Positions 4,663 through 28,011 of a stretch of 64,000 nucleotides of DNA are shown in pieces. A program made the translations under genes and the position numbers. The stretch lies in the NCBI GenBank assembly GCA_028716565.1, contig JAQUPL010000003.1, positions 1,473 through 65,472 on the forward strand. The letters are read 5' to 3'. Each line of letters begins with the position of its first letter. Position 1 is the stretch's first letter. The stretch is from Candidatus Omnitrophota bacterium. GTDB lineage: Bacteria; Omnitrophota; Gorgyraeia; Pluralincolimonadales; Pluralincolimonadaceae. The notes beneath the pieces are model-generated. The model searched no databases, was not told where the DNA came from, and was given only the letters and a program-made list of their open reading frames with translations.

Positions 4663-4684
4663 GGAAGAGAGGAAAAACAAAGAA

Positions 4685-6312: not shown

Positions 6313-6383
6313 TTCGGGAAAACTTAGAGCGATCCAAGAGATGCCAGCGCGTAATAAATATTCTGCGTGGACGTGAGGAAGAA

Positions 6384-7124: not shown

Positions 7125-7195
7125 CCCAAAAATCTCCATAAGCGTTATTAACGTCTTCACGCTATACTCTGCCTTATAAAGAAGAGGTAACGAAA

Positions 7196-7943: not shown

Positions 7944-7958
7944 AGGAGGTTCGTCAAA

Positions 7959-8147: not shown

Positions 8148-8149
8148 GT

Positions 8150-8375: not shown

Positions 8376-8405
8376 TAAATGGCAGGGAATGGAAGCATAG
8401 GTTAT

Positions 8406-8591
8406 ATGGAAAAACGATTTTTAGGCATGGAAGAAGCTTCTGAATACTTAGGCTTAACCAAGGGGACTCTCTATGGCTGGGTTTGCCACAAGAAGATCCC
8501 TTACTTAAAAATAGGCCGACTGGTAAAGTTTGATCTGCGCGAGATAGAGGCCTGGCTTAAAGACAGGAGGGTAAAAAGTGTCGAATTATAG
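8406..8591 (+). CDS. xis: Excisionase / AlpA-type HTH DNA-binding protein
   Basis: EASEYLGLTKGTLYGWVCHKKIPYLKIGRLVKFDLREIEAWL matches the excisionase-family HTH. Alternative starts at 8379 and 8427. Confidence 0.6.
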   Translation: MEKRFLGMEEASEYLGLTKGTLYGWVCHKKIPYLKIGRLVKFDLREIEAWLKDRRVKSVEL

Positions 8592-8676
8592 CTTGACTTC
8601 CCCCTCACTTCAGGGTAGTCTTGTGACTGACGGCTATACTATAACACATTGAAATACAATAGGTTATATCAAAAAT

Positions 8677-9762
8677 ATGGCGATAAGAGAACGCGACGGT
8701 AAATACTTTATAGACTATTACGCCAATGGACACAGGGTTCGCGAGGCCATAAGCGGCAGCAGGGCTCTTGCCGAAAAAGTCTTACGCAAGAGACAGAGCG
8801 CGATTGATGAGAACAGATACTTGGATATCAAGCGCAGCGAAAAGATCAGATTTGAGGATTTCCTCGAAGACTACCTTGAGCACCATTCGAAGCTAAATAA
8901 CCGCTCCTGGAAACGCGCCGAGATACCAAACATGAAGCGCCTTAAGGCGTACTTTTCAGGGCGCCTTTTGCAGGAAATCACCCCTCTCGATGTCGAGAAG
9001 TTTAAGGCCAAAACTTTAACCGAGGTCAGCCCCGCCACAACCAATCGTTGCCTCGCGCTTCTTAAGTCCATGTTTAATAAGGCGACCATCTGGGGAAAGC
9101 TTAACGGCCCGAACCCGGTTAAGGGGATAAAGCTATTCAGAGAAGAGAGCCGGCTTCGTTTTCTTGAGAAAGAAGAGATCGCCACGCTCCTTAAGTATTG
9201 CAACGGATACTTATATCCAGTCGTTACCGTTGCTTTGCATACCGGAATGCGAAAGTCAGAGATCCTAAACCTTAAATGGCATGATGTCGATTTTAGCCGC
9301 GATAACATATATTTAAGCCAGACTAAGAACGGGGAGAAAAGAGAGGTTTCCATGAACTCCCTGGTGAGGTCAACGCTTATCAAAGTAAGGAAGCATCCGA
9401 GCAGCCCTTATATTTTTGTAAACGCAAAGGGAAAACCCTATACTGATATACGAAAATCATTCCACGCAGCCCTGCATAAGGCCGGCATAAGAGACTTTAG
9501 GTTCCACGACCTAAGGCATACCTTTGCCTCGCAATTGGCGATGGCAGGGGTGGACCTGAACTCCATCAGGGAGCTTATGGGGCATAAGTCAATCAAGATG
9601 ACGCTACGCTACAGCCACCTATCGTCCGGCCATAAAAAACGAGCCGTTGAGGCATTAAACAACCAGATAGGCACGATTTGGGCACAAGAGCCGGTTAACA
9701 AGACAGAGGAAACGGCCACACCGTCACAATTGTTGACAAATTCGGGGGTTATGGTAATATGA
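8677..9762 (+). CDS. int: Tyrosine site-specific integrase
   Basis: 361 aa. C-terminal catalytic box HDLRHTFASQLAMAGVDLNSIRELMGHKSIKMTLRYSHL (R...HxxR...Y). Confidence 0.9.
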   Translation: MAIRERDGKYFIDYYANGHRVREAISGSRALAEKVLRKRQSAIDENRYLDIKRSEKIRFEDFLEDYLEHHSKLNNRSWKRAEIPNMKRLKAYFSGRLLQEITPLDVEKFKAKTLTEVSPATTNRCLALLKSMFNKATIWGKLNGPNPVKGIKLFREESRLRFLEKEEIATLLKYCNGYLYPVVTVALHTGMRKSEILNLKWHDVDFSRDNIYLSQTKNGEKREVSMNSLVRSTLIKVRKHPSSPYIFVNAKGKPYTDIRKSFHAALHKAGIRDFRFHDLRHTFASQLAMAGVDLNSIRELMGHKSIKMTLRYSHLSSGHKKRAVEALNNQIGTIWAQEPVNKTEETATPSQLLTNSGVMVI

Positions 9763-9785
9763 AAATGGCGGACGACGAAAGCACG

Positions 9786-9835
9786 TCAGATTGTCGATCT
9801 GAAGACCGCGAGTTCAAATCTCGTCGGGCCCGCCA
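9786..9835 (+). other. attR: 3' half of tRNA-Asp(GUC), from anticodon arm to CCA, with no 5' half
   Basis: Anticodon arm TCAGA-ttGTCga-TCTGA, T-arm GCGAG-TTCAAAT-CTCGT, acceptor 3' strand CGGGCCC, discriminator G, CCA. The matching 5' strand GGGCCCG is absent upstream. Lies 24 bp after the int stop. Confidence 0.55.
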
Positions 9836-9891
9836 TGTTTTACCAGAAGGTCTTGAAAATGGATAAAATACACAAATAGGAATCAAACCAA

Positions 9892-9917
9892 GGCGTTAGG
9901 AAACTAACGCCTTTTTT
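9892..9917 (+). terminator. Intrinsic terminator (GGCGTTAG-gaaa-CTAACGCC then T6)
   Basis: Perfect 8-bp stem and U-tract just after the tRNA fragment. Consistent with the native tRNA-Asp terminator retained to the right of attR. Confidence 0.6.
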
Positions 9918-9971
9918 GTTTGAAAGGAAACCAAGGTGAAAACATTTCCGGGGCTAGAATAAGGAGGGGAA

Positions 9972-11755: not shown

Positions 11756-12124
11756 ATGGACGCTAGATCCTTCGAGGCCCTTGTCGTCGCGGCCGTCGAG
11801 AGCCTGCCCGAAGAAATAAAACAGAAACTCGAGAATGTCGGCGTCGTCATCGAGGATGAGCCAACTGCGGAGCACAAAAAGGCCGGTGGTTCAAACGAAG
11901 ACGGTTACCTGATGGGGCTCTACCAGGGAGTGCCGCTCTCCAAACGGATGCATTATTACGGCAATGTCCTTCCCGACAAGATAACGATATTCAAAAATAA
12001 CATCGAGCGCGTCTGCCGCACGGATGACGACATAAAAGAGGCGGTCAGGCGCACGGTGATCCACGAGTTCGCGCATCATTTCGGCATCTCGGACGAGCAT
12101 ATGAAGAATTCCGGCACTTATTGA
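11756..12124 (+). CDS. Minimal zincin-like metallopeptidase (HExxH)
   Basis: 122 aa with VIHEFAHHFGISDEH near the C-terminus. Confidence 0.55.
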   Translation: MDARSFEALVVAAVESLPEEIKQKLENVGVVIEDEPTAEHKKAGGSNEDGYLMGLYQGVPLSKRMHYYGNVLPDKITIFKNNIERVCRTDDDIKEAVRRTVIHEFAHHFGISDEHMKNSGTY

Positions 12125-12199: not shown

Positions 12200-13438
12200 A
12201 TGAAAAAGAAGATATCGATATATGGTTTTATCCTTGCTTTTATTCTCACGTCCGCCGCCCAAGCCGCCGAGAGCGACAACTCCCTGGATATCATCCTGAA
12301 ACTCCAGGACAAAATAGACAGCGCCTTTATTAAAATGGATTCCGGCGCGGCTTTTGCCGCAAGGGAGATCCAGAAGACCGGCGCCTCGGGTAATGAGGGG
12401 CGGAAGATCATCGCCGACCTCGCCAGGTCGAGCCCTTACGCGGTTGATTGCTCGTACATCGACGCCAAGGGGATAATGGCCATAGTCGAGCCGGAAGAAT
12501 ATAAAAGCTGCGAAGGTTCGGATGTCAGCGGCCAGGAACAGGTAATTCGTATTCAAAGGACCCGCCGGCCGGTCATGAGCGACGCCTTTAAATGCGTCGA
12601 GGGTTTTTACGCGTCGGACATAGAGCAGCCGGTATTTTCGGCGAGGGGGGATTTCGCCGGGTCTGTCAGCCTGCTTTTCAAGCCGGAAGACCTGCTTTCG
12701 GCTGTGATAAAGTCGGTGACGAATGACCCGTCCCTGTATATATGGGTGATGCAGAAGGACGGGCGCATTCTTTATGATCCGGACCCGGATCAGATAGGGA
12801 GGATGTTATTCAGCGATCCTCTTTATGAGCCGTTCCCGGATACGGTAGCGTTCGGCAGGAAGATCGCCGCGGACAGGACAGGTTCGGGCTCGTACAATTT
12901 TTACGACCTGGGGACCACTAAACCCGTAAAAAAGAATGCAGTCTGGACTACCATTGCCCTGCACGGCACCGAGTGGCGGCTGGTCGTGGCGACGAAAGAG
13001 TTCTCGGCGAACGATAAACAGGATGCGGTCATAAAGAACGCCACGCAGCAGGCGGTCAGCATGCTCCAGGCCGTATATGACAGGGCGCAGAAGGATAACA
13101 TGACGCTTGACCAGGCGAAAGAGGCGGGCGCCAACCTGTTGAGGTCCCTGCGCTACGGCGACGACGGCAAGGGATATTTCTGGGCGGATACTGTCGCGGG
13201 CGTAAACGTCGTCCTCTACGGTGACAAGAAAGTGGAGGGCAAGAACCGCCTTGACGCGAACATAAACGGCGTTAATTATATCCGGGAGATAATTACCCGC
13301 GGCAAACAGCCGGGCGGCGGTTATACCGATTACTGGTTCCCGAAGCCGGGCTCGTCCGAACCTTCGAAGAAGAGGGGATACAGCCTTCTCTTCAGGCCTT
13401 TCGGGTGGGTCGTCGGCACGGGCTATTATCCGGACTGA
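12200..13438 (+). CDS. Periplasmic Cache-domain protein (C-terminal sCache_2), no transmitter domain
   Basis: Signal peptide. GYFWADTVAGVNVVLYGDKKVEGKNRLD...YTDYWFPKPGSSEPSKKRGYSLLFRPFGWVVGTGYYPD matches the sCache_2 consensus. Confidence 0.55.
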   Translation: MKKKISIYGFILAFILTSAAQAAESDNSLDIILKLQDKIDSAFIKMDSGAAFAAREIQKTGASGNEGRKIIADLARSSPYAVDCSYIDAKGIMAIVEPEEYKSCEGSDVSGQEQVIRIQRTRRPVMSDAFKCVEGFYASDIEQPVFSARGDFAGSVSLLFKPEDLLSAVIKSVTNDPSLYIWVMQKDGRILYDPDPDQIGRMLFSDPLYEPFPDTVAFGRKIAADRTGSGSYNFYDLGTTKPVKKNAVWTTIALHGTEWRLVVATKEFSANDKQDAVIKNATQQAVSMLQAVYDRAQKDNMTLDQAKEAGANLLRSLRYGDDGKGYFWADTVAGVNVVLYGDKKVEGKNRLDANINGVNYIREIITRGKQPGGGYTDYWFPKPGSSEPSKKRGYSLLFRPFGWVVGTGYYPD

Positions 13439-14618: not shown

Positions 14619-15038
14619 ATGGCCGATTATAACGTAAATTTATCGAAGGAACACGCCCTTAAAGAGAAGATGGGGCGGCTCGGGGTGCGCGAGAGCGACA
14701 TCGTCGAGTCGTTCATCCGTTCGAGCGGTCCGGGCGGGCAGAATGTCAATAAGGTCTCGACCGCCGTCTATCTCAAGCATATACCCACGGGCATAGAGGT
14801 CAAATGCGGGCAGGAGCGTTCCCAGGCGCTGAACCGTTTCCTCGCGCGCAGGATATTGGTAAATAAGATAGAAACCATGGCGCTTGGCAGGGCCTCCGAG
14901 GAGAGGAGGAAGATAGAAAAGATAAGGAGGCAGAAGCGCAAGAGGTCGAGGCGGGCGAAGGAGAAGATGCTCGCCGCGAAGAAGATACATTCGGAGAAGA
15001 AGGGTTTCCGCAGAAAACCGGAGGGAGACTATGAATAA
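14619..15038 (+). CDS. arfB: Peptidyl-tRNA hydrolase ArfB (alternative ribosome-rescue factor B)
   Basis: GGQ motif SGPGGQNVNKV. Basic C-terminal tail KIRRQKRKRSRRAKEK. About 139 aa. Confidence 0.8.
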   Translation: MADYNVNLSKEHALKEKMGRLGVRESDIVESFIRSSGPGGQNVNKVSTAVYLKHIPTGIEVKCGQERSQALNRFLARRILVNKIETMALGRASEERRKIEKIRRQKRKRSRRAKEKMLAAKKIHSEKKGFRRKPEGDYE

Positions 15039-16308
15039 AAAAGTTTTTTTCGTGTTGGCCTTTATCGCGGCATTCGCGCTCATATTGCCGCGGGCCGACG
15101 CGATAGCGTGGAAATATAACCTGCAGGACGCGCTGAAGGCCGCCAAGAGCCAGGGCAAGCCGGTCATGATAGATTTTTATACGGACTGGTGCGGCTGGTG
15201 CAAGAAGCTCGACAGCGACACGTATTCCGACCCGAAGGTCAACGCAGCGTCCGCTAAATTCATCTGTGTCAAGATAAACGCCGATAAGGAAAAGGACCTG
15301 ACGAACAAATACGGCGTCTCGGGATTCCCGACGATAATCTTCCTGGACAGCAACGGCAAAGTCCTCCAGAAGATACCCGGGTTCCTCCCCCCTGCCGGGT
15401 TCCTGCAGAACATGAAGAAGATACTTTCGACGACGCCGAAACCTATGGCAAAAATTGACGAGAAACCTCCCGTTGAAGCGGGAGGTTTCGCCGTCATAGA
15501 CGACCGGGCCGGAAAGAGGGACAAGGGCGGAAAACTCCTGCCGCCTAAGACGGTGGGCCAGGAATTCGTCTATAACGGCTATATAGAATCGGGCAAAGGC
15601 GGCATTATAGGCCAGATAAACTACAAGGGAGGCACCTATTTCGTAAAAAAAGGCGACATTTTCGCGCGATTCCAGGTGATCTCGATAGACAAAGGGAGCG
15701 TGGTCCTCGCGTCGGATAACGGCGAAATAACCCTTGAATCCAAAAAACCATACGGCAAGACAGGATTTATAAGCGATATCTCCAACGCGATAACCCAGCC
15801 CGTCGAGACGAGGTCGATGATAGACAGGGTCGAGATCGAGGAGTCTTTTCCGGCGCTAGCCTCAGGCAAAGCCAGGGCGATGATCTTATCCTTAACATTT
15901 GCCATCATACTTATTTTTTATATTTATTATGCCCTGTGCCTGCAGTTTATCGCCGCGAAGACAAAGACCCTGAACGGATGGATGGCGTGGGTGCCGGTCC
16001 TGAATATCTTCCTTGTCCTCAATATAGCATGGATAAAATACAGGTTCCTGGTCATCCCGGTCATTACGTTCTTCGCGTTTATCCTCATTTCGGCTTTCGT
16101 AGCGATGTTCAATCCTCTCGTCGGACTGGCATTTACCGCCGCCATAGTCCTTAACTCGCTCTATTTTGTCATCTTGATGGCGTATGTGTGGTATAAAGTC
16201 GCGATAGCGCGCGGGAAATCGCCGGGCCTGGCTGCGGTCCTGACGATCCTGATGTTCATCTCGCCGCTGAACCTGATCGCGCTGGGATACCTGGCTTTTT
16301 CAAAATAA
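15031..16308 (+). CDS. Thioredoxin-fold (CGWC) domain fused to a C-terminal polytopic membrane domain
   Basis: Signal peptide. DFYTDWCGWCKKLD. C-terminal 150 aa are hydrophobic helices. Confidence 0.55.
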   Translation: MNKKVFFVLAFIAAFALILPRADAIAWKYNLQDALKAAKSQGKPVMIDFYTDWCGWCKKLDSDTYSDPKVNAASAKFICVKINADKEKDLTNKYGVSGFPTIIFLDSNGKVLQKIPGFLPPAGFLQNMKKILSTTPKPMAKIDEKPPVEAGGFAVIDDRAGKRDKGGKLLPPKTVGQEFVYNGYIESGKGGIIGQINYKGGTYFVKKGDIFARFQVISIDKGSVVLASDNGEITLESKKPYGKTGFISDISNAITQPVETRSMIDRVEIEESFPALASGKARAMILSLTFAIILIFYIYYALCLQFIAAKTKTLNGWMAWVPVLNIFLVLNIAWIKYRFLVIPVITFFAFILISAFVAMFNPLVGLAFTAAIVLNSLYFVILMAYVWYKVAIARGKSPGLAAVLTILMFISPLNLIALGYLAFSK

Positions 16309-16331
16309 GCATTTTCGGAAAGAGATAAGCG

Positions 16332-17492
16332 ATGTTCTGGAAAAGGTTCTTTATAGTAATAGGCCTGCTGGTCATCCTGGCGTTCGTCGCCCAGTTGTTG
16401 GCCGCGCCGTATGTCAAAGGCCTGATAATCAAGGGCCTGAAGGAGTCGCTGGGAGTTGACGCGACCATAGGCGATTGCGCGGTGAGCGTCCTTCAAAGGA
16501 AGGTGATCCTTGACGATGTAACGGTCCTTAACCCGGAGAAGAAGGACGATTACATCCTGAAGGCGAAAGAGATAAGCGTGGATTTTTATCTCCTGCCGAG
16601 CCTGTTCAATAAATATATCCTGAATAACATAGTGCTAACGAACCCGGAGGCGATACTTTACCTCGATGAGTCCGGCAAGCTGAAAGTCCCGCAGTTCAAA
16701 AAGAAAGACGGCGCGAAGAAGGGCGGCGAGCTGCTGTTCAAGAGATTCGCAGTCGAGAACGGGAATTTCAAGTTCATAGACCAGAAAGTCTCTAAGCCGG
16801 CCACGATAACCGGGTTCTCTTCGATAAACTGCGAGATCGTGAATTCCGTATCCTTGTCCGGCAGGACGATAATAACGGGCGTGAACGCGAAAGGCAATAT
16901 AGAAGGCCAGGGGAAGTTCTCGGTCGACGGAAAAGGTAAATTTATCGAAAAGCCGATGAGTTTCGACGGCAATATAAAGATAGAGAACCTCCCGATAACG
17001 AAGTTCTCGGTCTATTGGGGCGGCCTCCTGCCGGTCAAGGTCAACAAGGGGAACCTCTTCCTTGATACCAAGGCGGCATGCGACAAGGGGAACCTCGATG
17101 TCAAAAACCGGGTCAGTATCAAGGACCTCGTACTCGAGCCTATAGGCGATCCGAACCAGACGGTCCTCTTCGAGCTCAAGACCGAGGACGTGATAACTTT
17201 CCTGAAGGACGAAAACAATACCGTAAACTTCAGCTTCGATATAAGCGGCGACCTGGCCAAGCCCGACTTTAAATGGGGCGCGGAGATGGGCAAGGCCCTG
17301 CGTAATGCCATGCTCAAGGCCTTTACCGACGGCGTCGGGCGTTTATTTATATCCACGATCAAGGATGCGGTCGAGAACCCTGCGAAGGCCGGGGAGAAGA
17401 TCGGGAACATGATAGGCGGCGATACGGGCGAGACGGTCAAGAAAATAGGCGACAAGATCAACAAACAGCTCGACAAGATAATGGGAAAATAG
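16332..17492 (+). CDS. Hypothetical N-terminally anchored protein (AsmA/DUF748-like)
   Basis: 386 aa. One N-terminal TM helix. Loose resemblance only. Confidence 0.4.
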   Translation: MFWKRFFIVIGLLVILAFVAQLLAAPYVKGLIIKGLKESLGVDATIGDCAVSVLQRKVILDDVTVLNPEKKDDYILKAKEISVDFYLLPSLFNKYILNNIVLTNPEAILYLDESGKLKVPQFKKKDGAKKGGELLFKRFAVENGNFKFIDQKVSKPATITGFSSINCEIVNSVSLSGRTIITGVNAKGNIEGQGKFSVDGKGKFIEKPMSFDGNIKIENLPITKFSVYWGGLLPVKVNKGNLFLDTKAACDKGNLDVKNRVSIKDLVLEPIGDPNQTVLFELKTEDVITFLKDENNTVNFSFDISGDLAKPDFKWGAEMGKALRNAMLKAFTDGVGRLFISTIKDAVENPAKAGEKIGNMIGGDTGETVKKIGDKINKQLDKIMGK

Positions 17493-17494
17493 GG

Positions 17495-17523
17495 TTGACT
17501 TGCCCTTTTTAAAATTATATAAT
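17495..17523 (+). promoter_or_regulatory. Consensus sigma70-type promoter for tRNA-Phe
   Basis: TTGACT, 17-nt spacer, TATAAT. About 30 nt upstream of tRNA-Phe. Confidence 0.55.
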
Positions 17524-17555
17524 ATCGAAACCTTCTCGTTAAATCCGTAACCTAT

Positions 17556-17631
17556 GCCGAGGTAGCTCAGATGGTAGAGCGCGGGACTGAAAATCCCGGC
17601 GTGAGCGGTTCAATTCCGCTCCTCGGCACCA
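17556..17631 (+). tRNA. tRNA-Phe (GAA)
   Basis: Cloverleaf read by eye. Anticodon loop CTGAAAA. CCA encoded. Confidence 0.85.
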
Positions 17632-17663
17632 TTTCACGATATAAATAAAAGGAGGAAGCAGTC

Positions 17664-17942
17664 ATGGCAGTAAAAAAGGCCGGGACAAAGAAAGTCACGT
17701 TTAAGCTCATCGCCCCTTATGCCAGCAGTGTCAGCGTTGCGGGAGATTTCAATAATTGGGATGTCAACGCCATCCCGATGAAGAAGGATTGGAAGGACGA
17801 CTGGACAGCCGGAACGACCCTGAAGCCGGGACGTTACGAATACAAATTCTACGTCGACGGTTCATGGCAGAACGACCCGAGCTGCGACACCTGCGTCCCC
17901 AACCAGTACGGCAGCACGAATTGCGTGATCGAGGTAAAGTAA
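17664..17942 (+). CDS. CBM48/AMPK-beta-like glycogen-binding domain protein
   Basis: 92 aa. VTFKLIAPYASSVSVAGDFNNWD...KPGRYEYKFYVDGSWQNDP. Confidence 0.55.
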   Translation: MAVKKAGTKKVTFKLIAPYASSVSVAGDFNNWDVNAIPMKKDWKDDWTAGTTLKPGRYEYKFYVDGSWQNDPSCDTCVPNQYGSTNCVIEVK

Positions 17943-17994
17943 TACACAAGGTTTTAGTTTTTGTAGTTTCTCTTCCTCCTGGGAAGGGGGCTCT

Positions 17995-18025
17995 GTAAAG
18001 GGGGAAACGATGCTTCCCCCTTTAC
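17995..18025 (+). repeat. Conserved hairpin, copy 1 (GTAAAGGGGGAA-acgatgc-TTCCCCCTTTAC)
   Basis: 12-bp perfect stem. Shares its GTAAAGGG/CCCTTTAC ends with copy 2. Confidence 0.5.
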
Positions 18026-18064
18026 GACAAATTTGCCCGGTTTTTAGGGCGAGACAAATTTGTT

Positions 18065-18140
18065 GCTGGCGTAGCTCAGTTGGTAGAGCAGCGGTTTCGT
18101 AAATCGCGGGTCGGAGGTTCAATTCCTCTCGCCAGCTCCA
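18065..18140 (+). tRNA. tRNA-Thr (CGT)
   Basis: Acceptor GCTGGCG/CGCCAGC. Anticodon loop TTCGTAA. CCA encoded. Confidence 0.8.
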
Positions 18141-18162
18141 TTCTTAAACCCCGGAACATTAT

Positions 18163-19422
18163 TTGGCGAGATTCAGGGAAGTCCTAAGCGAGCGTAATTT
18201 TTTCCTCCTCTGGGTGGGCCAGATAATCTCGCAATTCGGAGACAGGCTCAACCAGATGGCCCTGATAGCGATAGTCTACAGCAGGGCTCCCGGTTCCCCG
18301 TTCGAGCTCGCCAAATTCTTCTCATTCACTATAATACCCTCCTTTTTCGTGAGTCCGATAGCCGGCGCGTTCATAGACAGGTGGGACAGGAAGAGGACGA
18401 TGATCGGCTGCGATATCCTGCGCGGCCTGATAGTGCTTGTGATACCGGTCGCGTTCCTGGGCCTCACGCCCACATTCCCGATATACACCGCAGTGTTCCT
18501 TATCTTCGCGGTGAGCTGTTTCTTCCTTCCGGCAAGGCTCGCCATTATCCCGGATCTTGTCTCGAAAGAAAAACTGCTCGTAGCGAATTCTCTTTTTACG
18601 GTCACTTCGATGATAGGCGCGATATTCTGGTTTGTCATCGGTGGGCTCCTGGTGGAATTTTTGAAGGTAAAAGGCGGGTTATACCTTAACTCGTTCGTCT
18701 ACCTGATGTCGGCGGCGGCGATCGTTTTTATTACCGGCCACAGGCGGCAACAGAAGAAGGCGGAGGGATCGGTCGATATAGAAAAGATAATAGAGACGTC
18801 GATCGTCCGGGAGATAAAGGACGGGGCAAAATACCTGGCCGCACACAGCGAGGCGAGGTTCGCGTTCCGCATGCTCTTCGTCCTCATGGCCGGCGCGGGC
18901 GCGGCGTATGCCGTGGTGATAGTCTTCATCCAGGACGCGATGGGGTCGATGACCCGCGACTTAAGCCTCCTGGGATTCTTCCTCGGCGCGGGATTTTTTA
19001 TCGGATCGGTCGCCTATGGGAAGCTTGGTCACCGTTTCTCAAAGGCTAAATCGATATTCGCCTGCCTCATATTGTGCGGCATATCGATATGCGCTTTTAC
19101 GGCCGTCCTTAAGGGGACAAGGTCGTTTTTGGGGGCGTCTGTCGTGGCAATGATATTAGGCATTGCCATGGCGCCTATCGGGATATCGACGAACACCCTC
19201 ATACACGAGATGGTTGACGAGAAGATGCGCGGAAGGATATTCAGCTCACTAGGCATCGCGATGAACCTGGCGTTCCTCATATTCATGCTTGGTGCCGCGA
19301 AACTCGCCGAACGCGTCGACAGCGGCTGGATACTTTACGGGGTAAGCGTTTTTTATGTAATATCGGGAATACTCGGGTTCATAGACCTGCGTCTCTTTAA
19401 GGAGAAAGGCACCGATGCCTGA
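18163..19422 (+). CDS. MFS transporter
   Basis: 419 aa with about 12 TM helices and an MFS-like N-terminal signature. Confidence 0.6.
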   Translation: MARFREVLSERNFFLLWVGQIISQFGDRLNQMALIAIVYSRAPGSPFELAKFFSFTIIPSFFVSPIAGAFIDRWDRKRTMIGCDILRGLIVLVIPVAFLGLTPTFPIYTAVFLIFAVSCFFLPARLAIIPDLVSKEKLLVANSLFTVTSMIGAIFWFVIGGLLVEFLKVKGGLYLNSFVYLMSAAAIVFITGHRRQQKKAEGSVDIEKIIETSIVREIKDGAKYLAAHSEARFAFRMLFVLMAGAGAAYAVVIVFIQDAMGSMTRDLSLLGFFLGAGFFIGSVAYGKLGHRFSKAKSIFACLILCGISICAFTAVLKGTRSFLGASVVAMILGIAMAPIGISTNTLIHEMVDEKMRGRIFSSLGIAMNLAFLIFMLGAAKLAERVDSGWILYGVSVFYVISGILGFIDLRLFKEKGTDA

Positions 19423-20338
19423 TCACGACCTGATAATCATAGGCGGAGGGCCTGCCGGCCTGACCGCCGGGATATATGCCTCGCGCGCGCGGCTCAAGAC
19501 GCTTCTCCTGGAAAAGGCGATGCCCGGCGGGCAGATATTGACCTCGCCGCTGCTTGAGAATTATCCCGGATTCCCGGAAGGCGTCTCAGGAATGCAGATA
19601 ATAGAGGAGATCGTAAAGCAGGGCGAGCGCTTCGGGCTCACGGTAAAGATAGAGCCGGTCGTTTCCATGGAGGATAAAGGCAAAGGCGCGAAGACAGCCA
19701 GGACCGATAAGGATACGCATAAGGCGCCGGCCGTAATATTCGCGATGGGCGCGAGTTACGCCAAACTTGCGTTGCCTGGGGAGGACAGGCTGGGAGGCCG
19801 CGGCGTCTCTTATTGCGCGACGTGCGACGGGCCGTTGTTCAAAAATAAAGAAGTGGTCGTCGTCGGCGGAGGGGATACCGCGATAGAAGAGGCGCTCTTC
19901 CTGACGAATTTCTGCGCGAAGGTCAGCGTAGTCCACAGGAGGAATGAGCTGCGCGCGGCGAAGATACTCCAGGAGCGCGCGTTCGCGAACAAGAAGATAA
20001 ATTTCGTATGGGATTCGGTCGTCGCTGAAATATCAGGCGACCAGAGGGTAGAAGGAGTGAAGGTCAAGAACGTAAAGACCGGAGGGGAGAAGGCGATAGC
20101 GGCCCACGGCGTATTCATCGCGGTCGGCTTTAAGCCCCACACGGAATTAGCGAAAGGGCTTGTCGAGACGGACGAGAAAGGGTATATTATTACAGGGGAC
20201 GACATGTCGGCTTCGCGCGAAGGGTTCTTCGCTGCCGGTGACTGCCGTAAAAAACTCCTTTATCAATTCGTAACGGCCTGCGGTGACGGCGCCACCGCCG
20301 CCTTCGCCGCGCAGAAATATATTGAACAATTACGGTGA
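19415..20338 (+). CDS. trxB: Thioredoxin reductase
   Basis: IIGGGPAG, redox CATCDGP, second GG motif VVGGGDTA. Confidence 0.8.
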   Translation: MPDHDLIIIGGGPAGLTAGIYASRARLKTLLLEKAMPGGQILTSPLLENYPGFPEGVSGMQIIEEIVKQGERFGLTVKIEPVVSMEDKGKGAKTARTDKDTHKAPAVIFAMGASYAKLALPGEDRLGGRGVSYCATCDGPLFKNKEVVVVGGGDTAIEEALFLTNFCAKVSVVHRRNELRAAKILQERAFANKKINFVWDSVVAEISGDQRVEGVKVKNVKTGGEKAIAAHGVFIAVGFKPHTELAKGLVETDEKGYIITGDDMSASREGFFAAGDCRKKLLYQFVTACGDGATAAFAAQKYIEQLR

Positions 20339-20367
20339 GAGTACTTAATTCGGAAAAGGAGGGCAAG

Positions 20368-20778
20368 ATGAAGAGATCGATCGCGGTAATGTTGATGGTG
20401 CTGTTCGTTTCCGGCGTGTGCTTCGGCGCGAGCCCGGAGAAGAAAGCGAAGATCGCCGCCAAAAACTGGCTCGAATCCGTTGACCAGAAAAATTACGCAA
20501 AGAGTTATGACGATGCCGCCGAGTTCTTCAAGGTGATGGTAAAGAAAGACGAGTGGATAAACACGCTTACCAACCTGAGGAGCATGCTCGGGCCCGTGGA
20601 ATCGAGGGAGCTCATAAGTGAGAAATATCAGGAGAAGATGCCGGGCGCGCCGGACGGAGAATATGTCATCATCGTCTATAAGACAGATTTCAGGAAGAAA
20701 TCCGACGCCCGGGAAGTGGTAGTGCCCATGCTGGACAAAGACGGCAAATGGCGCGTCTCGGGGTACCACATCCAATAA
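20368..20778 (+). CDS. Secreted hypothetical protein
   Basis: RBS AAAAGGAGGG. Signal peptide MKRSIAVMLMVLFVSGVCFG. Confidence 0.5.
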   Translation: MKRSIAVMLMVLFVSGVCFGASPEKKAKIAAKNWLESVDQKNYAKSYDDAAEFFKVMVKKDEWINTLTNLRSMLGPVESRELISEKYQEKMPGAPDGEYVIIVYKTDFRKKSDAREVVVPMLDKDGKWRVSGYHIQ

Positions 20779-20805
20779 AGGCAGGTTAAAAACAGGAGGG
20801 ACAAC

Positions 20806-21135
20806 ATGGCTGAGGGCATACTGCAGTTGAAAGACGACAATTTTGACAAGGAGATAACACAGGCGAAGGGAGTGGCGCTCGTGGATTTCTGGGCGTCGTG
20901 GTGCATGCCTTGCAAGATGGTAGCGCCGGTGGTCGAGGCGATAGCCAAAGATTACGCGGGAAAAGTAAAGGTCGCCAAGGTCGAGGTGGACGAGGCCGGT
21001 GAGACGGCATCCCGCTTTAACGTGATGAATATTCCCACCCTTATAATATTCAAGGACGGCAAAGAGGCGGGTCGCGTCATAGGTGTCACGCCAAAGGAAG
21101 AGCTGGCTAGAAAACTGGACGCGCTGCTTAAATGA
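20806..21135 (+). CDS. trxA: Thioredoxin with non-canonical WCMPC active site
   Basis: 109 aa. VDFWASWCMPCKMVAP. Thioredoxin-length fold. Confidence 0.75.
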   Translation: MAEGILQLKDDNFDKEITQAKGVALVDFWASWCMPCKMVAPVVEAIAKDYAGKVKVAKVEVDEAGETASRFNVMNIPTLIIFKDGKEAGRVIGVTPKEELARKLDALLK

Positions 21136-21160
21136 ACCCAAAGACCAGGGGGAAACCGGG

Positions 21161-21760
21161 ATGAACTTCGCTGTCTTTTGCTCCGGACACGGAACGAACC
21201 TGCAGGCGGTAATTGACGCCTCGAAGAAGAGGCGCATCAGCGCGAAACTCGCGCTTGTCGTCTGCGATAATCCCGGGGCTTATGCGGTAAAGCGCGCCGG
21301 GAGAGCCGGCATACCGGTCGCCGTATTTGACCCGAAAGGTTTCGCCTCGGAAAAAGAGCTAGAGGCCGCGGTCGTCCGGGAACTCAACAGCAAAAAGATA
21401 AAACTTATCGCGCTCGCCGGGTATATGCGGATATTGAGCGATAGTTTCGTGAAGAGATACAGGAACAGGATATTGAACATCCACCCGGCGCTACTTCCGG
21501 CATTTAAAGGTGGACAAGCGATAAAAGATGCGATAAAATATGGCGTCAAAGTTACGGGAGCGACCGTCCATTTCGTGACCGAAGAGGTCGACGCGGGACC
21601 GATAGTCCTGCAGGCGGCATGCCCCGTAAAAAATAACGATAGCGAAAAAACGCTTCTAGCTCGTGTCCACAAACTGGAACACAAGATCTACCCCGAAGCG
21701 ATCGAGTTGTTCGCGAGGGGGAAGCTGAAGGCGGCAGGCAGGAGAGTAATAGTAAAGTAG
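21161..21760 (+). CDS. purN: Phosphoribosylglycinamide formyltransferase
   Basis: MNFAVFCSGHGTNLQAV...NIHPALLPAFKG. Confidence 0.75.
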   Translation: MNFAVFCSGHGTNLQAVIDASKKRRISAKLALVVCDNPGAYAVKRAGRAGIPVAVFDPKGFASEKELEAAVVRELNSKKIKLIALAGYMRILSDSFVKRYRNRILNIHPALLPAFKGGQAIKDAIKYGVKVTGATVHFVTEEVDAGPIVLQAACPVKNNDSEKTLLARVHKLEHKIYPEAIELFARGKLKAAGRRVIVK

Positions 21761-23218
21761 ATGTCGATAAAGTTTGGCACATCCGGTTGGCGTGCCGTAA
21801 TAGCCGACGGATTCACGTTCTCGAACGTAAGAAAAGCAGCGCAGGCGATAGCAGGCTACGTAAAGGCGCACCACCCTTCCAGGAAGGCCCCGCCCGTCGT
21901 AATAATCGGCCACGATACCCGCTTCGATTCAAGGGAATTCGCGTCTGCCGCGGCCAAGGTCCTTTGCGCGAACGGCGTGAAGGTCCTCCTTACCGAACGC
22001 GACACCCCCACGCCGGTGATCTCTTTCCAGGTTGTCCATAAGGAAGCCGACGGCGCCATAAACATAACAGCGAGCCATAACCCGCCCGAATATAACGGCC
22101 TCAAATTTTCGCCCTCGCACGGCGGCCCGGCCGAGCCGGAAGTCACGAAAGAGATAGAGAAGCGCGCCGCCAAAATCAAAGGCGAGGTAGAAGAGCCGTT
22201 GCCCTCGGAACTTAAATGCCGCATAGAAGAATTTGACCCCCGCCGGGCGTATTTCGCGCGGATAAAAGACCTTGTCGACCTCTCCGCGATAAAGAAAGCC
22301 CGCCTTAAAGCGGTCGTTGACGTGATGCACGGGACCGGCCGCGGATACCTGGACCGCATATTAACGGAGAACGGGTGCAAAGTCATATTATTGAACGACA
22401 ATCTCGACCCGCTCTTCGGCGGACACCCGCCGGAGCCGGCGAAGGATAATATAGGGAAGATGCTCCGCGAAGTGAAGAGGCACAAGGCCGACCTCGGCCT
22501 CGGCCTCGACGGCGACGCGGACAGGTTCGGGATAGTGGACGAGAACGGCAGGTTCTATACGCCGGACGAAGTAATATCGTTGTTATTCAAGCATTTGATC
22601 GATACGCGGCCGCGCCTCCCGAAGGTCGCGCGCACGCATTCGACGACGCGGCTCGTCGACAGGATAGCGGCCCGGTACGGCATCGAGGTCGTAGAGACGC
22701 CTATCGGTTTCAAATATATAGGCGAGGTATTAATGACCGGAGAATGCATAATAGGCGGCGAGGAGTCCGGCGGATTGTCGATAGCCAACCACGTCCCGGA
22801 GAAAGACGGGATACTCGCGTGCCTGCTGGTCGCCGAGATGGTGGCGGTCAGGGGCAAGAAGCTGAGCGCCATATTAAATGAGATATACCGCGAGTTCGGC
22901 AGGTCGTATCCGGGGAAATTGAACGTCAGGCTTACCGACGACCAGAAGGCGAGGCTCCTCCATATGCTCAAGAGCCGCCCGCCGAAAGAGATAGCCGGAA
23001 CGAAAGTCGCGAAACTGGACACGATGGACGGTTACAAATTTACCCTGGCCGACTCGAGCTGGGTCCTGGTCCGTCCGTCGGGCACCGAGCCGCTCATCAG
23101 GTTCCATTTCGAGGCGATGACCGCCGCGAAAGAGAAGAAATTAATAAAATATTGCGAAGACCTGATACACGCGATAAAGACACAGGTAAACGGGGTCCAT
23201 CCTCCGGAAGAGGATTGA
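21761..23218 (+). CDS. Alpha-D-phosphohexomutase (phosphoglucomutase/phosphomannomutase family)
   Basis: Active-site TASHNPPEYNGLKF. Mg loop DGDADR. GGEESGG. Confidence 0.75.
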   Translation: MSIKFGTSGWRAVIADGFTFSNVRKAAQAIAGYVKAHHPSRKAPPVVIIGHDTRFDSREFASAAAKVLCANGVKVLLTERDTPTPVISFQVVHKEADGAINITASHNPPEYNGLKFSPSHGGPAEPEVTKEIEKRAAKIKGEVEEPLPSELKCRIEEFDPRRAYFARIKDLVDLSAIKKARLKAVVDVMHGTGRGYLDRILTENGCKVILLNDNLDPLFGGHPPEPAKDNIGKMLREVKRHKADLGLGLDGDADRFGIVDENGRFYTPDEVISLLFKHLIDTRPRLPKVARTHSTTRLVDRIAARYGIEVVETPIGFKYIGEVLMTGECIIGGEESGGLSIANHVPEKDGILACLLVAEMVAVRGKKLSAILNEIYREFGRSYPGKLNVRLTDDQKARLLHMLKSRPPKEIAGTKVAKLDTMDGYKFTLADSSWVLVRPSGTEPLIRFHFEAMTAAKEKKLIKYCEDLIHAIKTQVNGVHPPEED

Positions 23219-23272
23219 GCGAAGCGAAACCCCGCACGGAGTGCGGGGCTAACCGCGGGATTGAGCGCGGGG

Positions 23273-23301
23273 TTGACATCCGTCGACGGATGTCTTAAAC
23301 T
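23273..23301 (+). promoter_or_regulatory. eno promoter (TTGACA, 17 nt, TAAACT) overlapped by a perfect 20-bp palindrome GACATCCGTCGACGGATGTC
   Basis: Palindrome at 23275-23294, seen directly. Immediately upstream of the eno start. Confidence 0.45.
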
Positions 23302-23305
23302 ATAG

Positions 23306-24850
<1,545 letters not shown>

Positions 24851-24861
<11 letters not shown>

Positions 24862-25336
24862 CGCCACCCAGGAAGTAAAGATCGACGATGTAGTTGATGC
24901 CGAGGTCATGAAGATAGCCGAGTTCGGCGCCTTCGTGAAATTCGGGAACAAGAAGGGCCTGATCCATATTTCGCAGGTCTCCGATTCCTATGTGAAGAAA
25001 GTCGAGGACCATCTTAAGGTGGGCGACAAGGTCAAGGCGAAGATAATAAAAGTTTCGCCTGACGGCAAGATAGACCTCACCTTAAAGAGCGGCAAGGAAC
25101 AGGCGTCGCGCCAGCCAAGGGGCCAGTTCCCCTCAGGCGGGCGCCCGCAGAGGGAACACGGAGGAAGGCGCGGCGGCCGCCCGGATTCGGGCTTCCGCGA
25201 GAACATGTCCTCCTCTCCCGAAGGGAAGTCCTTCAAGGCCTCGCCTTTTGAGGATAAGCTGAAGAATTTCCTTGTGGATAGCGGCGAGCTCCAGACCGAC
25301 ATCAAAAAACACGTCGAAGAGAAACAAGGCCGGTAA
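24851..25336 (+). CDS. S1 RNA-binding domain protein with RG-rich C-terminal tail
   Basis: The S1 fold pattern GAFVKFGNKKGLIHISQV...VGDKVKAKII. Confidence 0.65.
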
Positions 25337-25452
25337 TTCCCGTCTGATTTACCCCTTGCTATTAAGCAAAGGGTCTGCTATACTCTTTTACACAAGATTG
25401 GTGAATAGAAATTCGCTATTTTGATAACACTTCCGATTAGGAAAAGGGATCA

Positions 25453-25483
25453 GTAAAGGGAAAAACTACGTTTTTCCCTTTAC
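25453..25483 (+). repeat. Conserved hairpin, copy 2 (GTAAAGGGAAAAA-ctacg-TTTTTCCCTTTAC)
   Basis: 13-bp perfect stem. Same GTAAAGGG/CCCTTTAC ends as copy 1, with compensatory changes in the middle. Confidence 0.5.
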
Positions 25484-25526
25484 AGGAGACTCGTATAAAG
25501 TTTGACATATCTGACGAGTCGACTAT

Positions 25527-25603
25527 CGCGGGGTGGAGCAGCCTGGTAGCTCGCAAGGCTCATAACCTTGAGGTCAGAGGTTCAAATCCTCTCCCCGCTA
25601 CCA
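25527..25603 (+). tRNA. tRNA-Met (CAT), initiator-like
   Basis: First 27 nt identical to E. coli tRNA-fMet (CGCGGGGTGGAGCAGCCTGGTAGCTCG). The 1:72 pair is a C:U mismatch. The anticodon stem has only 2 of the 3 G:C pairs. Confidence 0.8.
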
Positions 25604-25716
25604 AATATATAAAGGCGTTAACTTTACGTTAGCGCCTTTTTTATTATTTAGGCCAAAAAAGTGGTAAAATAGCGGTAGTTTATGGCAGGGGGCATTTTTA
25701 CTAAAAGGGGAAAGAC

Positions 25717-26544
25717 ATGAGAGGCTTGAAGGTACTGATAGGCGCAGCAATGATAGCGTGTTGTTTGAGCAATGCAGGGCGGTGCGAAGATTTAAACAGC
25801 AGAAAGATGAATCCAATAATATCAGATTTAATTATCCGGTCGGTAGCCGGCAAGCTCCGTATTCCGGAAGAGAAATTCACGGTAGCCGATATCTCGTACG
25901 TCAAGTCCGGGGGCAACAATTATGCGGGTAATGCGAATGTTACCATGGCGGGCGCAGGAACGAAGACCACCTTCCGGGTATCTTATTCCATGATATCCGA
26001 TAATAGGACAGTTGCCCTGGTGTTAGACAATCCAACGTCGGCCATTCAGGCTGCTATCTCAAATGAAACGGATAAGGGATATCGCCTTCCCAGCGACAAC
26101 AGCCGGTCATCCGGAAGCGCCAAGCCGATCACTGCGCAATACGGCGATTTTAAATGGGGAATGCCTAAAGCAGAGGCCCGCGAATTAGCGCTATCCCAGG
26201 GCAAAGAAAACGTGAGTGTATATGCGGCAAATGACCCCGAAGGGAACATTTTTCAATTCGACGACGTTCTTCTTGATAAGCGCGTCATAGTAAAACTTTA
26301 TTTTACCCCAAACAGCGAAAAGCTTTTCAAGGTGTCAATAAAGGGTTTAGATGCTTTCCACGGCGATGCCCTGATCTCATCCCTGAATAAAAAGCACGGT
26401 AAATACGCGGCATCGATGCCGGATGAAAGATATTATTGGGGCAGCAGCAAGGAAGGAGACAGGATCGAATTATCAAAAGGAGAAGGCCTGTTACTTTATA
26501 GCAACGCGGAAGGCCTGGCGCTTGCAGAAAAAGAGAAACAATAA
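25717..26544 (+). CDS. Secreted hypothetical protein, lower GC than its neighbours
   Basis: Signal peptide. 275 aa. No motif recognised. Confidence 0.5.
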   Translation: MRGLKVLIGAAMIACCLSNAGRCEDLNSRKMNPIISDLIIRSVAGKLRIPEEKFTVADISYVKSGGNNYAGNANVTMAGAGTKTTFRVSYSMISDNRTVALVLDNPTSAIQAAISNETDKGYRLPSDNSRSSGSAKPITAQYGDFKWGMPKAEARELALSQGKENVSVYAANDPEGNIFQFDDVLLDKRVIVKLYFTPNSEKLFKVSIKGLDAFHGDALISSLNKKHGKYAASMPDERYYWGSSKEGDRIELSKGEGLLLYSNAEGLALAEKEKQ

Positions 26545-26586
26545 GTTAATCGGCGAATTTCCCCAAGAACTTGTATGAGAATTATT

Positions 26587-26615
26587 TTGACACCACAAGC
26601 CATTTGTGGTATAAA
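26587..26615 (+). promoter_or_regulatory. pur operon promoter: TTGACA, 17-nt spacer that is the palindrome CCACAAgccaTTTGTGG, then TATAAA
   Basis: Seen directly. About 100 nt upstream of purB. Confidence 0.5.
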
Positions 26616-26718
26616 TAATCGTAGCACAAGCCTTCATTAAACTAGAAATCCTCAAATAAGAAGAACAAATTATGTCCGAAGGACTCTCCTTTACGGGTTT
26701 TACACCTTTGGAGGGAAG

Positions 26719-28011
26719 ATGATCGAAAGATACACCCTGCCCAGGATGGGTAAGATCTGGGAAGACCAGAACCGTTTCCAGCGGATGCTCGACGTGGAGC
26801 TAATGGCCTGCGAGGCGTTCGCGAGGAAGAAACTTATACCAAATTCCGCATTATCCGAGATCAAAAGGCGCGCCCGCTTCGACGTAGACCGCATCAAAGA
26901 GATCGAAAAAGAGACCAAGCACGACGTGATCGCTTTCATAAAGAGCATCTCCGAGAACGTCGGGCCGGACGCCAAATATATCCACATGGGCCTCACCTCA
27001 AGCGATGTCCTCGATACGGGGCTCTCGCTCCAGATGAGGGACGCGGCAGATATCCTTATCGACGACCTCAAGAGGTTCCTCATAGCGTTAGAGAGAAAAG
27101 CCAAAAAATACAAGAACACCCCGTGCGTCGGCAGGACACACGGGGTGCACGCCGAGCCGATGACGTTCGGCCTGAAATTCGCGCTTATTTACGCCGAGAT
27201 ACAGCGTGATATCGCCAGGATGGAAGCCGCGCGCAAGGGGATAAACGTGGGCAAATTATCCGGCGCGGTCGGGACATTCGCCAACGTCGACCCGTGGGTG
27301 GAGGAATACGTCTGCAAACGGCTGAAGCTTGAGCCCGCGCCGATATCGACGCAGGTCATCCAGCGCGACAGGCACGCGCAGTTCCTGACGACTATAGCCA
27401 TAATAGGCGGCACGCTCGAGAAATTCGCGACAGAGATAAGGGCGCTCCAGAGGACCGAGATCCTCGAAGCGGAGGAGCCGTTTACCGAAGGGCAGAAGGG
27501 CTCATCGGCGATGCCGCACAAGAGGAATCCTGTGATATGCGAACGCATAGCAGGCCTCGCGAGGGTCCTGCGCGGGAACTCGCTGGCGGCGATGGAGAAT
27601 ATTTCGTTGTGGCACGAGAGGGACATATCGCACTCGTCTGTGGAGCGCGTCATAATCCCGGATTCGTGCATCCTCCTGGATTATATGCTGAACCTCGCCA
27701 CGGATGTGGCGATGCATATGGCTGTCTATCCGGAACGGATGATAGAGAACCTCGAGAGGACGAAGGGCCTGGTATTCTCGCAGAGGGTGCTTTTGGCGCT
27801 CATAGGCAAGGGGCTCACGAGGAATGAGGCGTATGACATGGTCCAGAAATGCGCGATGCGCGTCTGGAAGGAGAACATCGGGTTCAGTGCGATATTAACG
27901 GACGATATCGACGTCACGAAATACCTGACGCACGAGGAGGTGGAAGCCTGCTTCGACCCGGGCTATTACACCAAGAACGTCGACAGGATATACAAACGGT
28001 TGGGGCTATGA
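26719..28011 (+). CDS. purB: Adenylosuccinate lyase
   Basis: N-terminus ERYTLPRMGKIWEDQNRF. Fumarate-lyase signature SSAMPHKRNP. Confidence 0.85.
   Translation: MIERYTLPRMGKIWEDQNRFQRMLDVELMACEAFARKKLIPNSALSEIKRRARFDVDRIKEIEKETKHDVIAFIKSISENVGPDAKYIHMGLTSSDVLDTGLSLQMRDAADILIDDLKRFLIALERKAKKYKNTPCVGRTHGVHAEPMTFGLKFALIYAEIQRDIARMEAARKGINVGKLSGAVGTFANVDPWVEEYVCKRLKLEPAPISTQVIQRDRHAQFLTTIAIIGGTLEKFATEIRALQRTEILEAEEPFTEGQKGSSAMPHKRNPVICERIAGLARVLRGNSLAAMENISLWHERDISHSSVERVIIPDSCILLDYMLNLATDVAMHMAVYPERMIENLERTKGLVFSQRVLLALIGKGLTRNEAYDMVQKCAMRVWKENIGFSAILTDDIDVTKYLTHEEVEACFDPGYYTKNVDRIYKRLGL

Follow-up and report, generated by a model that had tools for sequence, protein, structure and literature searches.

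The window analyzed here, which is the whole stretch of 64,000 nucleotides from a Candidatus Omnitrophota bacterium, contains two similar hairpins that each lie upstream of a tRNA gene, and the question they raise is whether they belong to a selected structure and, if so, what such a structure could be doing at the 5' side of tRNAs. The initial annotation described the first hairpin as GTAAAGGGGGAA-acgatgc-TTCCCCCTTTAC at 17995-18025 and the second as GTAAAGGGAAAAAC-tac-GTTTTTCCCTTTAC at 25453-25483, and both are present as described, each 31 nt long, with a perfect stem of 12 bp in copy 1 and of 14 bp in copy 2. The other features that it named are also found: a box ahead of the first hairpin (GGGAAGGGGG at 17981-17990, with GGAAAAGGG at 25440-25448 in the same place in copy 2), a tRNA gene downstream (39 nt to tRNA-Thr(CGU) at 18065; 43 nt to tRNA-Met(CAT) at 25527), and the lack of a canonical U-tract, with no T-run after either hairpin (GACAAATT and AGGAGACT are what follow the two stems). 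The pattern GTAAAGGG-N(5-30)-CCCTTTAC has two matches in the window versus none in 100 dinucleotide shuffles. Nine distinct perfect hairpins of ≥9 bp occur in the 64 kb, and four of these nine adjoin tRNAs.

What that annotation missed is that the hairpin (here H1) is part of a larger module, that a second covarying hairpin (H2) abuts the tRNA, and that close relatives lack the module, which is an insertion. The likeness of the two window copies is wider than H1; it starts at TACACAAG (17943 and 25389) and includes both H2 and an upstream pairing of the purine-rich box (H0). The features of the two copies and their surroundings are as follows.

17495-17523, + strand: sigma-70-type promoter TTGACT-17-TATAAT upstream of tRNA-Phe, with 11 of 12 consensus matches
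17943-18064, + strand: copy 1, whole module, 122 nt, filling the gap from the stop codon of the CBM48 ORF (17940-17942) to tRNA-Thr
17970-17988, + strand: copy 1 H0, CTCTTCC-tcctg-GGAAGGG, a fold in which the purine box is paired with an upstream pyrimidine run
17981-17990, + strand: copy 1 purine box GGGAAGGGGG, conserved in all nine copies
17995-18025, + strand: copy 1 H1, reduced by one T-to-C change to 12 bp from the 14 bp (plus triloop) usual in the family
18026-18064, + strand: copy 1 H2, with arms GACAAATTTG (18026-18035) and CAAATTTGTT (18055-18064) and its last pair at tRNA position -1
18065-18140, + strand: tRNA-Thr(CGU), the gene preceded by copy 1
25356-25384, + strand: tRNA-fMet promoter TTGCTA-17-TATACT, TG-extended, conserved in all relatives
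25389-25520, + strand: copy 2, whole module, ~130 nt between the promoter -10 and tRNA-fMet, with the native spacer gactat (25521-25526) kept
25440-25448, + strand: copy 2 purine box GGAAAAGGG, with a weak H0 (TTCC at 25431-25434 with GGAA at 25440-25443)
25453-25483, + strand: copy 2 H1, 14 bp, loop TAC
25488-25520, + strand: copy 2 H2, GACTCGT (25488-25494) with ACGAGTC (25514-25520), leaving 6 nt before the tRNA
25527-25603, + strand: tRNA-Met(CAT), initiator type, with C1 opposite A72
25611-25647, + strand: canonical intrinsic terminator after tRNA-fMet, a 12-bp stem then TTTATTATTT

The tRNA-Met(CAT) gene is close to E. coli tRNA-fMet. Covariance models of the module (R1 and R2) found no further copies in the window; the match to copy 2 spans 25440-25523, and the other two GTAAAGGG words in the window (28569 and 46603) have neither a match to these models nor a matching hairpin.

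The phosphoglucomutase (PGM) gene neighboring the module was used for a genome-collection scan, which gave 11 syntenic Omnitrophota loci, and protein look-ups added ten more, L065 to L074. In this small sample, in which most loci were chosen because they flank the sites in question, there are nine distinct copies at four sites in Omnitrophota assemblies: one site at tRNA-Thr, two at tRNA-fMet, and one at tRNA-Gly. The Thr site carries the module in the window, L012, L003, and L004; an fMet site carries it in the window and in L068; and the Gly(CCC) site carries it in L064, L071, and L072 (identical to L073). The two tRNA-fMet occurrences are apparently independent. The element is present in independent NCBI, JGI, ENA, and Logan assemblies and is thus no assembly artifact. 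Proteins of the window are identical to those of the Candidatus Omnitrophota MAGs GCA_028714115.1 and GCA_028711645.1, and their nearest homologues are all from Omnitrophota.

Across these copies the module is ~85 to 130 nt long and reads, 5' to 3', as a variable part, the purine box, H1, H2, and the tRNA. The box has the consensus GGAAGrGGG, is kept in 9/9 copies, and lies 4 to 5 nt upstream of H1. In the family, H1 has 14 bp and a triloop, with conserved GTA... and ...GAAAC/GTTTC, and H2 has 10 bp, starts without a linker after H1, has a loop of 16 to 19 nt (in copy 1 this loop holds an inner GCCC/GGGC stem), and ends its 3' arm 0 to 6 nt ahead of the first base of the tRNA. The H0 pairing common to both window copies is cTTCC-n5-GGAA, and its equivalent in L068 retains 7 bp, one of them changed.

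Both window leaders fold better than their shuffled counterparts (z = -4.0 and -5.9), and H1 and H2 are predicted in each; RNAalifold recovers H0, H1, and H2. In the nine distinct copies, 94.8% of the cells form standard pairs, and 0/500 shuffles reach the observed values. Double compensatory changes are found at 13 of the 24 pairs, 6/14 in H1 and 7/10 in H2. The alignment behind these covariation counts was fitted to the structural model, but the raw sequences themselves show the stems, e.g., CTAGGGAGAGAAAC/GTTTCTCTCCCTAG in L068 versus GTAAGGGGAGAAAC/GTTTCGCCCCTTAC in L004 for H1, and AACGAGCTTG/CAAGCTCGTT in L071 versus AACGATTTCG/CGAAATCGTT in L072 for H2. When the pairing partner is slid by 1 to 3 columns as a control, pairing falls to 38 to 53%. 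The initial annotation had called the two-copy change in the hairpin center the mark of a selected structure rather than of chance, and had held that two copies with no further covariation would speak against this. Covariation beyond those two copies was looked for and found, in nine distinct copies from several assemblies, and it supports, far more firmly than a pair of copies could, the conclusion, drawn from sequence comparison, that the structure of the module is under selection. On the tRNA-sense strand there are 4 G-U pairs versus about 1 A-C pair, an excess that by itself favors an RNA fold weakly; together with the constant orientation of the copies, it favors a fold in RNA. In predicted folds of the full precursors, the hairpins of the module and the tRNA cloverleaf form independently of each other.

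The purine box has a second potential partner. In three copies it is complementary to the loop of H2, over 9 nt in L003, 8 nt in L004, and 8 nt in L071, by sequences that differ among the copies and yet match within each (shuffle P of <0.001, 0.0045, and 0.011, respectively), and this pairing is a possible pseudoknot in these three. Neither window copy has it, nor do L012, L064, and L068; in both window copies the box pairs with the upstream pyrimidine run of H0 instead.

The distribution of filled and empty sites indicates how the module came to lie where it does. At the Thr site, the module (122 to 144 nt) is confined to the window and to the relatives nearest to it, L012, L003, and L004, in which PGM is 91 to 94% identical. 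In L065 and L066 (both 88%), in L006, and in most of the 76-78% clade, the same site is empty, with 5 to 6 nt from the CBM48 stop codon to the tRNA; in L009 the distance is 29 nt. The fMet promoter, TTGCTA-17-TATA(C/A)T, is kept in all relatives at 10 to 45 nt from the tRNA. At the orthologous fMet site the ~130-nt insert is found only in the window; L004 and L012 have TATACT, 17 nt, and then the tRNA, and the module is also missing there from L065, L066, and the 76% clade. A diverged copy lies upstream of the tRNA-fMet of L068 (GCA_041643015.1; PGM 81%). Metagenome contigs were also scanned, regardless of context, for a strict H1 pattern, one too strict to count diverged copies (the H1 stems of L071, L072, and L068 would fail it), and the single match, in L064, again adjoins a tRNA. 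There the module stands between the stop codon of a PfkB kinase and tRNA-Gly(CCC); the same site is filled in L071 and L072/L073 and is empty in L074 and in L070, which reads 'gat taa|GCGGG', with TAA touching the tRNA. Because close relatives have exact empty sites, with a stop codon or promoter 0 to 17 nt from the tRNA, the module is an insertion. The association with tRNAs that the initial annotation had seen in two copies extends to the whole set: 9/9 lie directly 5' of a tRNA, on the tRNA strand, between a transcription start or upstream cistron and tRNA +1, and every module site has a co-directional ORF upstream. The covariance-model scan found no further copy in 1.15 Mb, which includes the whole window and ~300 kb of related Omnitrophota DNA, nor in 36 kb more.

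Junctions can be read by comparing filled and empty sites. At the Gly site, gat-[TGAATG...CGTT]-TAA|tRNA when filled is gat-TAA|tRNA when empty, and at the Met site, TATACTcttt-[TACACAAG...]-gactat when filled is TATACTttagtcactat when empty. No terminal inverted repeats or target-site duplications are present at the junctions compared with empty sites, and microhomology is ≤1 to 2 nt. L068 is atypical, with a ~30-nt direct repeat of the native leader flanking the core on both sides. The left flanks (TAA, cttt, gatT) show no clear common target motif, among only four sites. Sequence comparison of the copies cuts across the sites: the H1 of the L004 Thr copy is identical to that of the L064 Gly copy (31/31) and matches its own Thr orthologues at only 24 to 25 of 31 positions, and the H2 of the L003 Thr copy is closer to that of the L071 Gly copy (17/20) than to that of the window Thr copy (14/20). 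As judged from these matches, the copies swap sequence among themselves, in a mosaic exchange. In a PfkB tree the empty L070 site is nested among filled sites, which indicates clean loss or recombinational gain. Gene tables around the copies show no transposase beside any of them, and no RAYT (Y1) either. Transport of the module to two sites by a common PfkB gene was rejected, since the kinases of L064 and L068 are paralogues only 30% identical, and so was extension of the PfkB C terminus by the insert, the length difference being one of N-terminal start-codon calls. A looser H1 pattern had 0 matches in viral contigs, which gives no sign of a phage origin.

The module appears to depend on its neighbors for transcription. 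No promoter-like or terminator-like site was found inside either window module (terminator scan, 15000-27500). Two candidate elements were inspected by eye in all copies, the 3' arm of H1, TTTAC(G/A), for a -35 and the 5' motif TTGCTGTAAAGAAT for either a -35 or an extended -10; no well-spaced conserved -10 goes with them, so a promoter inside the module was discarded. A small ORF was discarded too, since copy 1 has an ATG that is not conserved. For the tRNA-Phe/CBM48/module/tRNA-Thr string, the best promoter-like site on the upstream side is the one at 17495-17523, with weaker ones inside the CBM48 ORF. The tRNA-Thr and tRNA-Gly genes have no promoter after the preceding ORF and lie 0 to 6 nt from its stop codon in relatives, and they must therefore be read through. 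The module is thus not at the end of a transcription unit: on its 5' side is a promoter or an ORF, and the tRNA on its 3' side has no other promoter. The terminator that had been considered as one outcome for the hairpin does not fare well, given that there is no U-tract, that copy 2 lies between a conserved promoter and the initiator tRNA, and that copy 1 lies between an ORF and the promoterless tRNA-Thr; as a transcription terminator the module is unlikely, while a processing site, the other outcome, is a plausible role.

It is common in this clade for an ORF to stop 0 to 6 nt before a tRNA, as for frr/tRNA-Lys (56505/56511), CBM48/tRNA-Thr (the site at 17942-18065, in relatives), and PfkB/tRNA-Gly (L070, 10900-10907), and the tRNAs sit within long runs of genes on one strand (tRNA-Phe, CBM48, tRNA-Thr, MFS, and others). 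Such an arrangement suggests that tRNA processing may define mRNA ends in the clade.

The module does not correspond to a known family. With Rfam 15 at the gathering threshold, only tRNAs were found in the whole window, and at an E value of ≤10 the best non-tRNA matches to both modules scored 11 to 23 bits against thresholds of 42 to 200, with no riboswitch or ribozyme among them. There is no Rfam match to a T-box leader, and the module stands upstream of tRNA genes rather than synthetase genes. Derivation from a tRNA, an integron attC site, parS, or a CRISPR repeat was dropped, there being no tRNA-model match, no R'/R'' boxes, and no array. A search of the literature found no described equivalent, and we know of no bacterial repeat confined to the few nucleotides before tRNA genes. 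On the comparisons made here, the module is a small, lineage-restricted, previously undescribed RNA family in one narrow group of uncultivated Omnitrophota, and it adds a well-supported motif with 13 covarying pairs for this poorly studied phylum.

We propose that the module is a duplicative, self-folding insert in pre-tRNA leaders that is removed by RNase P and that caps the 3' end of the upstream RNA, in one Omnitrophota clade, and we would put the probability of this at slightly better than even, about 0.55. With neither promoter nor terminator of its own, the module would be transcribed within the tRNA precursor, whether transcription continues from the ORF before it or starts at the promoter of the tRNA itself, and RNase P would cut it off in making the tRNA 5' end. 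It occupies at least four tRNA leaders. Because the insert folds wholly on itself, it should neither terminate transcription nor disturb tRNA folding, and a self-folding insert with no U-tract would be tolerated at a place from which it is later cut away. After cleavage, the upstream RNA would end in H2 with an overhang of 0 to 6 nt, which is the form least well handled by 3' exonucleases, so that the module probably caps this end with a protective double hairpin. Capping would matter here since ORFs end 0 to 6 nt before tRNAs. In E. coli, the secG mRNA has a half-life of under 30 s once RNase P separates secG from leuU (PMC2241853). Two points temper the proposal. The window Met copy follows a promoter, so that much of its transcript would carry no upstream mRNA to protect. 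In addition, the RNase P protein subunit normally contacts leader nucleotides -3 to -6 (PMC12439589), and H2 pairs positions -1 to -10; in this model it could hinder that contact and slow processing rather than be neutral.

The other explanations divide according to whether the fold works as RNA or as DNA. A selfish mobile element that acts at the DNA level, either REP-like or an IS200/IS605 miniature whose single-stranded hairpins are recognized by a transposase encoded elsewhere, would be found in tRNA leaders simply because a compact genome has no other place where landing does no harm, and the RNA fold would have no role. Presence/absence polymorphism with exact empty sites is what such an element would leave, as are mosaic exchange, an empty site nested among carriers in the PfkB tree (clean loss or re-gain), and conserved stem sequence (GTA..., GAAAC/GTTTC) that suggests sequence-specific recognition; the lack of terminal inverted repeats and target duplications is itself usual in IS200/IS605-type elements. 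We nevertheless hold this explanation to be doubtful. Copy number is very low (two in 64 kb), all copies lie 0 to 6 nt from a tRNA 5' end in tRNA orientation, and random insertion followed by selection should have left other intergenic copies, of which there are none in 1.15 Mb. There is no transposase in the gene tables beside any copy, the excess of G-U over A-C pairs weakly favors RNA, and the placement of H2 at the RNase P site looks functional. Compared class by class, the module lacks the many dispersed intergenic copies of REP/BIME elements (two in 64 kb, no extra in 1.15 Mb); it shares with MITEs the presence/absence polymorphism at orthologous sites and not the terminal inverted repeats and target-site duplication; and, set against IS200/IS605 miniatures, hairpins are present and inverted repeats and duplications absent, with only four sites from which to judge insertion 3' of a fixed tetra- or pentanucleotide. 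Still less credible is a double-stranded DNA operator, with half-sites GTAAAGGG and CCCTTTAC bound by a dimeric regulator of tRNA transcription. What invites it is that the palindrome is perfect, that its outer half-sites are conserved, and that at the Met site a promoter is close by, but half-sites should be conserved rather than compensated, and the outer stem covaries just as the inner one does (at positions 4 and 5, A-T becomes G-C; at position 1, G-C becomes C-G). Moreover, the Thr and Gly sites have no promoter nearby, and close relatives with identical promoters lack the module, so that we give this reading almost no weight.

Among the explanations in which the fold works as RNA, a regulatory leader could gate tRNA maturation, with the box alternating between H0 and the H2-loop pseudoknot and with H2 blocking RNase P until a signal arrives, in a riboswitch-like or protein-dependent manner. 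The complementarity of 9, 8, and 8 nt in L003, L004, and L071, the pairing of the box with H0 in other copies, and the coverage by H2 of leader positions usually contacted by RNase P (PMC12439589) are all in keeping with this. Yet both window copies, L012, L064, and L068 lack the pseudoknot, close relatives have the same tRNAs without the module, so that it cannot be essential for regulation, Rfam has no matching riboswitch or ribozyme even at an E value of ≤10, and the neighboring genes suggest no ligand or partner; such gating is improbable. The double hairpin could also be a stable small RNA that acts in trans, as a sponge or sRNA, after release by RNase P. The product is predicted to be compact and highly stable (-44 to -46 kcal/mol), and transcription from the Met promoter would make of it a separate RNA of ~135 nt whose ends are defined. 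On the other hand, it has no conserved single-stranded seed, its loops vary freely among copies, and close relatives do without it, and we regard a role in trans as rather more improbable still. Very unlikely, finally, is an intrinsic terminator or attenuator that works with no U-tract to end the upstream gene. H1 is a strong G+C-containing hairpin (12 to 14 bp) downstream of an ORF at the Thr and Gly sites, but no T-run lies within 0 to 2 nt of it or follows H2, tRNA-Thr and tRNA-Gly depend on read-through, copy 2 stands between an initiator tRNA and its conserved promoter, and canonical hairpin-plus-T-run terminators are present in the same window (25611-25647 and 9890-9920).

Several known systems share part of this arrangement. 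The REP/BIME, Correia, BOX, RUP, and ERIC repeats are co-transcribed with neighboring genes, and some stabilize upstream mRNA as 3' stem-loops. Like REP/BIME-type repeats, the module is short, hairpin forming, multicopy, and lineage specific, and its presence varies between relatives. In contrast to their tens to hundreds of dispersed copies, it is rare and stands only just before tRNAs in tRNA orientation, and unlike them it has no terminal inverted repeats or target duplications. Intrinsic terminators likewise place a stable G+C-containing hairpin downstream of a gene, whereas the module has no U-tract, lies upstream of a read-through-dependent tRNA, and adds a second hairpin and a purine box. 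In the secG-leuU co-transcript and in mitochondrial tRNA punctuation, a tRNA also comes directly after an ORF, and the 3' end of the mRNA is generated by RNase P, but the mRNA released from secG-leuU has no protective structure, while the module would leave a covarying double hairpin at the predicted 3' end (PMC2241853). By analogy, the module may work like a REP-type 3' stabilizer combined with tRNA punctuation.

For the restriction to tRNA genes, the nearest analogy may be with the tRNA-targeting retrotransposons of eukaryotes. Ty3 and Dictyostelium TRE5-A confine their insertions to a short interval ahead of tRNA genes, which serves as a safe haven where the genome is compact. This is analogy only, since those are kilobase-sized autonomous retroelements guided by Pol III factors and the module is a noncoding bacterial insert of ~100 nt. 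A bolder form of the idea, that a ~100-nt bacterial element homes to the last nucleotides before tRNA 5' ends and needs its two-hairpin-plus-pseudoknot fold for spread or for clean release by RNase P, is offered here as speculation with the odds clearly against it; if true, it would be a prokaryotic counterpart of Ty3/TRE5 safe-haven targeting. Should the capping proposal hold, a bacterium with a compact genome would be using tRNA genes as mRNA 3' ends and a transferable RNA module to cap them, the module would provide a natural test of how a fully structured leader abutting position -1 affects RNase P, and it may be the first small bacterial element limited to tRNA 5' leaders. Were it no more than a neutral insert specific to the lineage, it would be a minor curiosity.

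A second family of structured leaders (family B) precedes both tRNA-Ser genes (UGA and CGA) of the window, at 58618-58670 and 58789-58843, and is found in relatives in L077 (about 11990-12039 and 12640-12692) and L078. Its first hairpin has the loop ATAT(A/G) between arms CCCGACGA/TCGTCGGG or ATCCCGCGGA/TCCGCGGGAT, and its second hairpin, GCTTGCT/AGCGAGC, ends its 3' arm at tRNA position -1. In a relative with 88% SerRS identity, both stems are kept with other sequences (GACCCTTCGGA... and GCGCGC/GCGCGC), and they covary between the window and L077/L078. Family B has the same hairpin-hairpin-tRNA layout as the module, but its sequence is not detectably similar to that of the GTAAAGGG family, and it lacks a purine box. 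Its presence in the 88% relative indicates that it is older or more stable than the module, and a shared layout that is conserved and covarying there suggests that this layout is functionally favored in the lineage. The contig of GCA_028711645.1 that begins at window position 9780 (49,034 bp) ends at ~58813, inside a tRNA-Ser leader hairpin, which is consistent with an assembly break at repeated sequence. Just downstream, at 58927-58963, is the longest perfect hairpin of the window (16 bp), with no T-run after it. Its 5' arm is the 3' acceptor strand of tRNA-Ser(CGA) plus CCA and a few trailer bases, so the trailer could compete with the acceptor stem.

Other observations concern tRNA genes and terminators elsewhere in these loci. 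In L068 (8084-8430) the tRNA-fMet gene is split in its anticodon loop by a ~270-nt insert that matches the Rfam group I intron RF00028 (61.9 bits; gathering threshold, 50), and the tRNA was missed by ARAGORN because of this intron. Window positions 1-9800 (L075) look like an integrated island, with a type III restriction-modification pair (N6_N4 methylase and ResIII helicase), SpoVG, an HTH_17 excisionase-like gene, and a tyrosine integrase that ends near 9760 (by offset from L075); two sister-assembly contigs start at ~9780. Just after the integrase, at 9768-9836, is a tRNA-like sequence, GGCGGAC...GAGTTCAAATCTCGTCGGGCCCGCCA, with a T-arm and acceptor 3' end, which was called by neither ARAGORN nor Rfam and which may be the tRNA-derived attachment site of the island. 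The terminators at 9890-9920 and 25611-25647 have nearly the same stem, AAGGCGTTA...TAACGCCTT followed by a T-run, and may represent another small repeat family.
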